IMG/VR virus record: IMGVR_UViG_3300001336_000001
Coordinates: 42,836-106,835 of that record
Reading direction: 5' to 3' (one strand)
Source of the DNA: a virus
Lineage: Duplodnaviria; Heunggongvirae; Uroviricota; Caudoviricetes
Length of the DNA: 64,000 nt
The position numbers and the translations under genes are program-made. Shown piece after piece: positions 34,105-35,715 of the stretch. Each line of letters starts with the position of its first letter. Within the stretch, counting starts at the first letter, position 1. A model generated the notes under the pieces. The model worked only from the letters and a program-made list of their open reading frames with translations. It made no database searches and was not told the DNA's origin.

Positions 34105-35715
34105 TTATTTTTTTACTACTTTATGCACATACTTATTATTTTCGGTAAATATATTTATAAAATAAAACCCATTTACATATTTAGATAAATCTATAGTTTT
34201 TAATGTATAATTTTCAGTGGTTGTGACCTGAGTTTCTTCTATCGTTTTTCCAGTATTGTCCGTAATTTTAATTAATACCCTTTCAATGGTGTTGTTTCGT
34301 ATACCAACATAAATTTCACTCAGAGTTGGGTTGGGGAATACTTCGGTGTATAATTGATTATTGTATTCATTACAAATTAAATATTTTGGTTCAAAATATT
34401 CGAATTTACCATCAAAATCGACTTGTTTTAATCTGTAGTAACCTTCAAAATAACCACCCGCTGTCATATCGTAAAATTGATAGTCTTTAATTGTATTTGA
34501 ATTACCCATTGCTTGAATTTTTGACACTCCCACCCATTCAATACCGTCTATACTTTTTTCAATTTCAAAATAATCTGAATTTTGTTCAGTAGCGGTTGTC
34601 CAATTTAATATTGGGATTCCGTTATCACACTCTGTTGTGAATGAAGTTAGTGTTACTGGTAGAGCTGATGGTCTTTCTACTGTAATGTCTCTACAGTTAG
34701 CATCCTGACCACAAAACTCATTCGTACTAACATGTATAAAATATGTTCCATTAGTTGGGGCTGTCCATGCTAAAGGAGAAGTACCAAATGCGACCACAGT
34801 GCCGTTAGGGGTAGTTGATGTTATAGTTAGCCAGTCAGATGATACACTGGAAGTTACTATATAATCAGTACCTGCAACTGCGTTAGTCCATTCAGAATAT
34901 TCATCCGTGTATAAACCGTAAGTGGAACATGCGGATAAAACCGATGGTGTTGATTGTGTAGGCATATTAAAGTTACATTGTAAATTGGTTAGACTAATAC
35001 TTTGTCCACCACTTAAAGAACCTGATGTAATTAAATCATTTCCACAAAAAATAGAATAATTAATAGTGTTGTCATTAAATGTTCCTTGTGTTTCTAAATT
35101 TAATGTGTATGGTTGTGGTTGCCCTTCTAAATTTACAAAACTAGTAACATTATTAGGAAAACCATTTCCACTTTGTATTGTAACACCTAATGAATTGACT
35201 AATGTGTACCCAACTTCATCAGCAAAAAAATTAGTTGGTTGAATTACCAAAACCATTTTACTAAATGTGTTTAAACATGGACCAGGTGAAGACGGTGTAC
35301 TACATCGAACTCGTCGTGTCTGATTGGTTGTACTTGAACCACATCCAACATTTAAGTGAGTCCAAAATATAACTTGACCTGTAAAAGTGGCAGTCCATGT
35401 AACAGATGTTGTAGTATTAGTAACACCCCAAGCCAAAGCACTATTCACATTAAACGTTGTAGTAATTGTAGTAAAACGATTTAATCCACCTGAAGTTCTA
35501 TAAGATTGGAACTCATATGTATTTCCTGCCACTACATTAACAATTGAATATTCCCTTGAATAAGCCCATGTAATTGACGTCCAAGAACCATTAACTCCAG
35601 TTCCACAAACAAGAGATAAATTACCATATTGACCATAAACATTATTTGTACATTGTGAAAAAACACTTGTTGTAAAAACAAATAAAAAGGATAGTAAAAT
35701 CAAGAAACTCTTCAT
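34105..35715 (-). CDS. secreted Thr/Ser-rich protein with a type IX secretion (Por) C-terminal sorting domain
   Basis: Signal peptide MKSFLILLSFLFVFTTSVFSQ. C-terminal FPNPTLSEIYVGI...DNTGKTIEE...LSKYVNGFYFINIFTENNKYVHKVVKK matches the T9SS CTD pattern. Confidence 0.6.
   Translation of the reverse strand: MKSFLILLSFLFVFTTSVFSQCTNNVYGQYGNLSLVCGTGVNGSWTSITWAYSREYSIVNVVAGNTYEFQSYRTSGGLNRFTTITTTFNVNSALAWGVTNTTTSVTWTATFTGQVIFWTHLNVGCGSSTTNQTRRVRCSTPSSPGPCLNTFSKMVLVIQPTNFFADEVGYTLVNSLGVTIQSGNGFPNNVTSFVNLEGQPQPYTLNLETQGTFNDNTINYSIFCGNDLITSGSLSGGQSISLTNLQCNFNMPTQSTPSVLSACSTYGLYTDEYSEWTNAVAGTDYIVTSSVSSDWLTITSTTPNGTVVAFGTSPLAWTAPTNGTYFIHVSTNEFCGQDANCRDITVERPSALPVTLTSFTTECDNGIPILNWTTATEQNSDYFEIEKSIDGIEWVGVSKIQAMGNSNTIKDYQFYDMTAGGYFEGYYRLKQVDFDGKFEYFEPKYLICNEYNNQLYTEVFPNPTLSEIYVGIRNNTIERVLIKITDNTGKTIEETQVTTTENYTLKTIDLSKYVNGFYFINIFTENNKYVHKVVKK

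Follow-up and report, generated by a model that had tools for sequence, protein, structure and literature searches.

A Candidate Type IX Secretion Substrate Encoded by a Large Phage with Predicted Bacteroidota Hosts

The CTD Gene and Its Product

The stretch of viral DNA analyzed here, hereafter the window, is 64,000 nucleotides long and corresponds to positions 42,836 to 106,835 of the IMG/VR record IMGVR_UViG_3300001336_000001. Among its tRNA and nucleotide-metabolism genes lies a minus-strand gene for a 536-aa protein with a predicted signal peptide and a type-A C-terminal sorting domain (CTD) of a type IX secretion system (T9SS). T9SS builds the surface coat of Bacteroidota, their gliding adhesins and much of their set of secreted enzymes. 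The open reading frame (ORF) begins with ATG, and the stop-to-stop frame opens just two codons upstream of it. The product is rich in threonine (14.4%), asparagine (9.1%) and serine (9.0%) and contains 12 cysteine residues. The original prediction, made from the DNA letters without database searches, had described a Thr/Ser/Asn-rich, phage-encoded protein with a cleavable signal peptide and a C-terminal CTD pattern. The composition agrees with that description, and the profile searches that it proposed, with PF18962 and TIGR04183, both gave matches above the curated cutoffs.

PF18962 (Por_Secre_tail) matches residues 459–534 with 46.1 bits against a gathering cutoff of 27 bits (E 6e-12; profile positions 1–74 of 75), and TIGR04183 matches residues 459–536 with 41.6 bits against a cutoff of 23 bits (E 9.3e-11; profile positions 1–72 of 72). 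The CTD match is far above chance. The motifs FPNP(T), DNTGK and GFYFINIFT...K, the last with a C-terminal KVVKK, are all present, and their core residues, P113, N114, P115, D138, G141, G168, Y170 and I174 by the numbering of the family alignment A2, are invariant in it. The profile of the C-terminal module also matches solved T9SS CTDs (8glk_D, 8glj_D, 5jvk, 7pzj, 5m11, and 6za2 from PorU). In the AlphaFold model (AF2) the CTD forms a seven-strand sandwich with a predicted local distance difference test (pLDDT) score of 83–91. A hidden Markov model (HMM) of the CTD, built from the matches and run over the six-frame ORFs, found no second type-A CTD in the window.

The N-terminus, MKSFLILLSFLFVFTTSVFS followed by QC, has the n/h/c layout of a Sec signal peptide, a call made by inspection of the sequence and by conservation across homologs. 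Q21 and C22 are invariant among the 11 full-length homologs of alignment A1, Q21 is nearly invariant in alignment A3, and [SAGTC]Q occurs at positions 15–32 in 36 of the 37 full-length members of the phage-lineage group. In Bacteroidetes, a 'Q-rule' is known by which cleavage of the signal peptide leaves a pyroglutamate N-terminus. The signal at Q21 is thus read as a putative signal peptidase I (SPase I) site with Gln at +1, not as a lipobox. By profile, motifs and signal peptide, the 536-aa protein is assigned to the T9SS type-A CTD cargo class, and its secretion is predicted.

A lipoprotein of the Llp/Cor type was considered as another reading of the N-terminus. It was rejected because no lipobox is present, ...VFSQ-C placing Q at −1 to Cys22, and because this cysteine belongs to domain A (see below) and is absent from cassette relatives that carry other cargo (SQT, SQP, SQA...).

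Domain Organization of the Mature Protein

Alignment, self-comparison and two AlphaFold models divide the mature product into five β-sandwich domains, termed A, M, A′, pre-CTD and CTD (Table 1). Domain A is modeled with a PPC/collagen-binding-domain-like fold that also resembles carbohydrate-binding modules (CBMs). This assignment needed a domain-level model; a Foldseek search with the whole five-domain model was too generic, returning just Ig/Fn3 chains, including those of the lambda and T5 tail tips. PF04151 (PPC) does not match the 536-aa protein even at E ≤ 1, so that likeness to PPC and collagenase collagen-binding domains (PF04151; 5sv5, 1nqd, 5iku) is one of modeled fold, at 7–14% sequence identity. 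Domain A′ is an internal repeat of A (32% identity over 92 aa, E 3e-4, by BLASTP), where the AF2 confidence is lower (pLDDT ~58–69). The A repeat has no Pfam model and is present in 436 representative protein clusters, some of whose proteins carry CTDs. Up to 16 A-repeat stretches were matched in one protein, of 2,505 aa (P0122 and others are examples of A-repeat proteins).

The middle module M, whose AF2 strands span residues 154–245, is exchanged among homologs: in alignment A1 a different insert occupies its place in P0004, P0005 and P0007, and P0002 has extra domains. The Fn3/Ig-like pre-CTD domain is the best-conserved part of the family, including a cysteine pair, C363/C448, conserved in alignments A2 and A3, and AF2 models it with a pLDDT of 76–91. 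It is widespread, recognizable by the pattern LPVEL...YYRLKQxDxDG, and has no sequence match in Pfam, NCBIfam or the PDB. Pfam, NCBIfam and structure searches found binding or structural domains only, with no catalytic domain or fold anywhere in the protein, and the depolymerase that the original prediction had offered as one option is therefore unsupported; a binding or adhesin-like protein, or a role in superinfection exclusion, its other options, are plausible. The A repeat, the pre-CTD domain and the short tail of viral relatives described below are three elements for which there is no curated model among the models searched.

Table 1. Positions of the features discussed, in window coordinates unless a contig is named.
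Feature	Position	Strand	Evidence or remark
Whole gene, 536-aa predicted exported protein with T9SS type-A CTD	34105–35715	−	ORF, Pfam/NCBIfam matches, homolog family
Signal peptide (aa 1–20), predicted SPase I cleavage ...VFS/Q21	35656–35715	−	n/h/c regions, Q21 conservation
Domain A (aa 22–140), β-sandwich, PPC/collagen-binding-domain-like fold	35296–35652	−	Domain-level structural model
Module M (aa 147–250), β-sandwich, exchanged in homologs	34966–35277	−	Alignment A1, AF2
Domain A′ (aa 263–348), internal repeat of A	34672–34929	−	BLASTP of A against A′
Pre-CTD domain (aa 350–449), Fn3/Ig-like, LPVTLTSF...YYRLKQVDFDGKFEY	34369–34668	−	Alignments A2/A3, AF2
T9SS type-A CTD (aa 459–536)	34108–34341	−	PF18962, TIGR04183, PDB profile matches, AF2
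Divergent 5′ part of the gene (signal peptide and start of domain A)	35581–35715; L169 58–192		Window compared with L169
T5orf172/MUG113 gene directly upstream of the CTD gene	35765–36169	+	PF13455 E 6.6e-16, PF10544 E 1.2e-11; likely true ATG near 35858
Downstream genes: 107-aa membrane-helix protein (33708–34031) and 229-aa protein (33032–33721)	33032–34031	−	Synteny with L012
TnpB/IS605 OrfB-like gene, Cas12f1-like TNB domain	29868–31049	−	Adjoins first tRNA array
tRNA arrays (10 and 9 genes)	27463–29148; 51292–53319		ARAGORN; account for the local GC peaks
RNA repair/tRNA maturation genes	18329–19879; 37829–39016; 42920–43957; 45153–47075; 48589–49506; 56305–57447		
Short-tail genes (examples)	L012 9350–10411; L014 4298–5641; L009 9434–10411 and 10561–12579		
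Type-B sorting-domain protein and small PKD_6 protein	L002 13066–13629 and 13645–14223; L167 6269–7412		

A Conserved Export Module with Exchanged Cargo

About 40 metagenomic proteins (P0002–P0041) share the 188-aa C-terminal module, composed of the pre-CTD domain and the CTD, with the 536-aa protein at 45–64% identity, and their signal peptides end in ...SQ. Their cargo is unrelated to that of the 536-aa protein and of binding type: CUB with GEVED, MAM or InhA-like MAM, the galactose-binding-like GBD_T9SS_assoc, and Ig_7. CTD variants are mixed among cargo types within the family, and no catalytic domain or enzyme partner was found in the 536-aa protein and the ten relatives scanned.

All seven homolog contigs that were inspected (L001, L002, L005, L007, L166 and L167 among them) are phage-like, L005 coming from a 236-kb contig. 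The 75.8-kb contig L001 carries a homolog of the CTD protein with 67% identity beside T4-type portal and gp13 genes. Several of the homolog contigs share additional genes with the window; in L007 these surround a CTD gene with different cargo and comprise RlaP (67% identity), the gene upstream of RlaP (54%) and a divergent T5orf172 gene (39%). Similarly, L002 and L167 have a common neighborhood (Rhomboid, NIF, ..., CTD gene, ..., PKD_6, CHU_C) and differ in cargo. The CTD gene of the window adjoins a T5orf172 gene; in L002 and L001 the neighbors of mobile type are TnpB and a TnsA-like gene, respectively.

Exchange has also taken place within the gene. A metagenomic copy, L169, is 97% identical, and this identity is unevenly spread: the first 135 nt are 80.7% identical and the remaining 1,476 nt 99.5%, while the 154-nt 3′ flank is 100% identical to that of the window. 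The split puts a breakpoint of recombination within the gene's 5′ end and marks the L169 copy, by sequence, as a recombinant mosaic. Outside the recombinant 5′ end, only 2 amino-acid changes separate the two proteins. The whole-gene ratio of nonsynonymous to synonymous substitution rates (dN/dS), 0.30, is discounted because the pair is a recombinant mosaic, and the pair is also too close for a meaningful dN/dS.

In tblastn against 50,697 phage records the 536-aa protein had four weak matches only, all in huge uncultured phages, and an IMG/VR scan with the full protein gave no match. A scan of metagenome contigs returned almost entirely bacterial-type relatives at 30–40% identity, plus one close relative (L086), and contributed little on genomic context. 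With the N-terminal 330 aa as query, a word-indexed search yielded 7 matches that were uninformative. The same layout occurs in the 462-kb uncultured huge phage LR756500.1 (L168, 2449–3558), where a 369-aa protein consists of a signal peptide ending in ...SSQ, cargo, the pre-CTD domain and a type-A CTD (TIGR04183, 32.7 bits); its gene is next to a PhoH-like gene that contains an intein. The pre-CTD domain is matched by LR756502, LR756504 and LR745206 as well.

Sorting domains of type B occur in the related contigs as well. A 192-aa protein of L002 with a signal peptide matches TIGR04131 with 48.4 bits, and the adjoining PKD_6 protein has a signal peptide too; in the related phage contigs both are located 1.5 kb downstream from the gene with the type-A CTD. 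No homolog of either was detected in the window.

Phage Origin and Lineage

The window has a GC content of ~30%, and nearly all of its ORFs of at least 100 aa are on the minus strand. It contains 19 tRNA genes in two arrays and a dense set of genes for RNA repair and tRNA maturation (RNase II/R, RlaP, two RNA ligases, a Thg1-like tRNA-His guanylyltransferase, a Pnk-like kinase and a CCA-adding enzyme). Further genes encode an amidase endolysin, a sigma factor, an A1-like DNA transfer protein (phrog_1745, 508 bits), a tyrosine recombinase and TnpB. The best matches of the A1-like protein are in Maribacter, Cellulophaga and Flavobacterium phages, and those of RlaP are in the huge uncultured phages LR745206 and LR756502, Tenacibaculum phage PTm1 and Lak phages. 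The window appears to belong to a large phage of Bacteroidota. Megablast with 10 kb around the CTD gene found no match among the 50,697 phage records. A bacterial-chromosome origin of the window was also considered, and was rejected on gene content and strand bias.

When one genome per species was searched across 185,579 bacterial and archaeal species, the export module was found at 56 loci, all of them in Bacteroidota. These cellular homologs are at most 42% identical to the phage module, and the nearest belong to Crocinitomicaceae (Brumimicrobium, Lishizhenia, Taishania, Fluviicola), so the host is probably a member of Flavobacteriales within Bacteroidota. Because identity within the phage group is 45–64% and does not exceed 42% to any cellular genome, the phage copies, as represented by these ranges and the seven inspected contigs, seem to form a separate lineage as opposed to fresh captures. 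Thus, both the phage origin and the Bacteroidetes link that had been proposed from the DNA letters are upheld, the former by the endolysin, RNA ligases, sigma factor, tRNA genes and strand bias together with the phage-like homolog contigs, the latter by the 56 of 56 cellular loci and by the phages of Bacteroidota that are the best matches of the phage genes.

Short-Tail Relatives at the Same Locus

The pre-CTD domain occurs in 22 proteins from 21 IMG/VR contigs (L009–L029, up to 156 kb) that are related to the window phage. A signal peptide ending in Q is present in nearly all of these proteins, and those that were scanned carry binding-type cargo. The CTD HMM detected a type-A CTD in none of the 22, and PF18962 does not match the six that were scanned, even at E ≤ 1. 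After the pre-CTD domain comes a conserved tail of ~40 aa, e.g., KKVVKYINLMGQEV...GFIFEVYEDGT..KIIR. The distribution of the two endings is distinct: a full type-A CTD follows the pre-CTD domain in 60 of 62 cases in GTDB bacterial genomes, in 89 of 93 on metagenome contigs and in 8 of 9 in the phage lineage of the window, and in 0 of 22 on the IMG/VR viral contigs, all of which have the short tail. The short tail is thus present in 22/22 viral-contig proteins vs. 0/62 in bacterial genomes.

Shared neighbors place the short-tail genes at the locus of the CTD gene. In L012 the short-tail gene is directly followed by homologs (43% and 35% identity) of the 107-aa and 229-aa genes that lie downstream of the CTD gene in the window, and in L024 it is preceded by homologs of the window gene at 39013–39594 and of the T5orf172 gene. 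When the 40-aa tails were compared with the CTD alignment by hhalign, only 17 columns, covering the motif-D strand, were aligned (probability 15%, E 0.0018). The likeness is weak, and 'truncated CTD' is for this reason a description only. The tail could be a degenerate signal, a new signal or an inhibitor. A word-indexed search with the viral short-tail module gave 3 matches and was uninformative.

Comparison with Known Systems

Bacterial T9SS cargo includes adhesins and lectins with type-A CTDs, such as RemA of Flavobacterium johnsoniae, a T9SS-secreted lectin. Their layout of signal peptide, binding domains and type-A CTD is that of the 536-aa protein, which differs in being phage-encoded, in having a module at most 42% identical to cellular ones and in its N-terminal A domain, which belongs to no curated family. 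Phage products that leave the cytoplasm, alter the envelope or a receptor, and block infection or protect progeny are known from T5 (the lipoprotein Llp) and T4 (Imm and Sp). These are functional analogs only; they take a lipoprotein or inner-membrane route and have no sequence or fold relation to the 536-aa protein.

Phage genes with T9SS CTDs have been reported twice. Bellas et al. (2020, Nat Commun; PMC7468147) found three variable T9SS-CTD genes in a 76-kb 'Cryophage' of Bacteroidetes from cryoconite, called this a unique occurrence, and proposed a hijack of T9SS, possibly for superinfection exclusion. The Cryophage genes resemble the CTD gene described here in having type-A sorting domains and in lying in flexible, recombining islands that are highly variable between phage variants. 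The cargo is different by description, consisting of an endoglucanase, a GH39 protein and a PA14 protein in Cryophage and of binding-type β-sandwiches only in the window. The phage lineage is also different and much larger (19 tRNA genes in the window alone, and a relative on a 236-kb contig), and its export module includes the Fn3-like pre-CTD domain common to ~40 cargo variants. According to de Jonge et al. (2019, Viruses; PMC6949934), crAss-like phages have T9SS sorting domains on ORFs with BACON repeats and on neighboring ORFs. These are likewise phages of Bacteroidetes, with sorting domains fused to putative carbohydrate-binding modules, but they belong to another phage group, carry BACON cargo and lie in the vicinity of the head module.

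Phage-encoded T9SS cargo is therefore known from sequence in two papers, to which the 536-aa protein adds a member. New here are the non-enzymatic, PPC-like architecture, the conserved cargo-swapping export cassette in a large-phage lineage and the virus-only short-tail variant. Literature searches returned no experimental test of a phage T9SS cargo and no mention of the subject in papers on huge or jumbo phages. The 'moraphages' (PMC12619734), recently described as a lineage of large phages of aquatic Flavobacteriia, may be related to the phage of the window; the matched passages of that paper make no mention of T9SS.

Proposed Role and Alternative Explanations

The 536-aa protein is probably exported via the T9SS of the host, judging from its signal peptide and CTD. 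During infection of a Bacteroidota host, Sec would export the protein, which would then fold in the periplasm; the 12 cysteines, including the conserved pair of the pre-CTD domain, fit folding outside the cytoplasm. PorV/SprA form the T9SS translocon, and PorU is the sortase of the system. The CTD would hand the protein to PorV/SprA, and after PorU-type removal of the CTD the mature part of ~435 residues, made up of a pair of PPC/collagen-binding-like repeats, an exchangeable module and an Fn3-like stalk, would be displayed on the infected cell or released. Once displayed, it could remodel or mask the surface of the infected cell, which would give superinfection exclusion or, as with T5 Llp, stop progeny from adsorbing to debris.

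What the domains do at the surface is suggested by the pattern of variation. A conserved export module, swapped binding domains, an intragenic breakpoint and mobile-type neighbors together point to a diversifying surface-interaction protein. Resistance of Flavobacterium to phages is reported to map to genes for gliding and T9SS (bioRxiv 10.1101/2020.10.02.323337; PMC9804748), implying that T9SS-dependent surface structures matter for adsorption. Surface masking, i.e., superinfection exclusion or protection of progeny, is favored on account of this relevance and of the diversification pattern, yet as a specific role argued largely by analogy it is tentative. The whole reading, in which the phage makes a substrate of the host T9SS that displays or releases binding domains for masking or exclusion, is given a somewhat better than even chance.

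Several observations weigh against it. Its weakest step is the biological role, which is drawn only from analogy and the diversification pattern. At the same locus, all 22 short-tail proteins lack a detectable CTD, so a canonical T9SS signal may be dispensable for whatever function is conserved at the locus. The window contains no capsid or terminase gene and no virion genes, the CTD-gene homolog of L001 lies 1.2 kb from the portal gene, and de Jonge et al. (2019; PMC6949934) place such genes of crAss-like phages upstream of the head module. Finally, the contigs inspected represent 7 of the ~40 family members.

Among the alternatives, the one that survives best, though it is judged unlikely, shares the route through Sec and T9SS and differs in the outcome. 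The protein would be a substrate-binding 'public good' or an adhesin, released or surface-bound, and would not interfere with phage adsorption. As an adhesin, the main alternative to masking, it could attach infected cells to polymers or particles, or it could bind a polymer that serves as a nutrient. The modeled PPC/collagen-binding-like, CBM-like fold of domain A would suit such a function, as would the lectin-like cargo of the paralogous cassettes (GBD_T9SS_assoc, F5/8-type-C-like, CUB, MAM), and Cryophage has glycoside hydrolases with CTDs (Bellas et al., 2020). However, neither the 536-aa protein nor the ten scanned relatives have an enzyme partner or a catalytic domain, and the rapid swapping of cargo with intragenic recombination suits the target of an arms race better than a metabolic helper.

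Mobile-type neighbors (T5orf172 in the window, TnpB in L002, the TnsA-like gene in L001) and domain types typical of bacterial T9SS cargo would also be expected of a host-derived passenger, gained by recombination and tolerated in a hypervariable island without a phage-specific role. This is considered improbable, since the module group of the phage lineage stands apart from every cellular genome in sequence identity, the locus is kept across distantly related phage contigs with all seven inspected ones phage-like, and 2 amino-acid changes separate the gene from L169 outside the recombinant 5′ end, in a pair too close for a meaningful dN/dS.

The short-tail relatives, which keep the signal peptide and the pre-CTD domain and end in a tail that weakly resembles the motif-D strand, are the ground for a further, very improbable explanation. 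In this the CTD would not serve productive secretion, and the protein would act in the periplasm or at the translocon, e.g., by occupying or jamming T9SS so that host gliding or secretion stops. The CTD of the 536-aa protein is complete, with its core motif residues invariant in A2, and the likeness of the tail to the CTD is weak. To our knowledge, this explanation has no precedent. Least probable of all is a virion component, be it an Ig-like decoration or a protein that binds receptors and docks on PorV/SprA from outside through a CTD mimicking host cargo: phage decoration and tail proteins often have beads-on-a-string Ig/Fn3 domains, tail tips of lambda and T5 are among the Foldseek matches, and the L001 homolog lies near portal and gp13 genes, but PHROG matches are zero at E ≤ 1, the window neighbors are tRNA and nucleotide-metabolism genes instead of a structural module, and the conserved Sec signal peptide with Q21 would take the protein out of the cytoplasm, where virions assemble.

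Returning to export and masking, the complete signal peptide and CTD, the tractable size of the protein and the ~40 natural cargo swaps make it a concrete test case for surface re-decoration. A wider version of this reading is speculative: a widespread lineage of large phages with Flavobacteriia-type hosts would keep the export cassette at a conserved locus, shuffle lectin- or adhesin-like domains into it by recombination and re-coat the infected cell via the host T9SS, with the virus-specific short-tail derivative as a new sorting signal or a decoy that blocks T9SS. Either would, if true, give phages a hitherto undescribed means of exploiting type IX secretion or of sabotaging it. CTD-bearing viral genes could also be used as a marker of Bacteroidota hosts in host-prediction pipelines.

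Neighboring Genes and Minor Observations

The T5orf172/MUG113 gene is among the few plus-strand genes of the window and is divergent to the CTD gene. Its homologs adjoin the corresponding gene in L007 (39% identity) and L024 (38%), which suggests a mobile or homing element tied to a variable locus. The 107-aa and 229-aa proteins downstream of the CTD gene have no Pfam match and show no sign of a functional link to it. In the relative L002, copies of TnpB lie directly beside the CTD gene.

Some of the ARAGORN predictions in the window are unusually long (Lys, 83 and 91 nt; Gln, 84; Ile, 87; His, 84), and could reflect introns, odd structures or over-calls by the program. A k-mer search found the AT-rich 8-mers TATTTATA/ATTTATAT and TATATTTG to be 8- to 10-fold enriched upstream of minus-strand genes. 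Of these, TATATTTG is similar to TAnnTTTG, the −7 element of Bacteroidetes. ~100 nt upstream of the ATG of the CTD gene (~35810–35821) is ATTTATATAT, and both motifs occur upstream of the next gene (34032–34104, minus strand). These enriched 8-mers are possible promoters of phage or host type.

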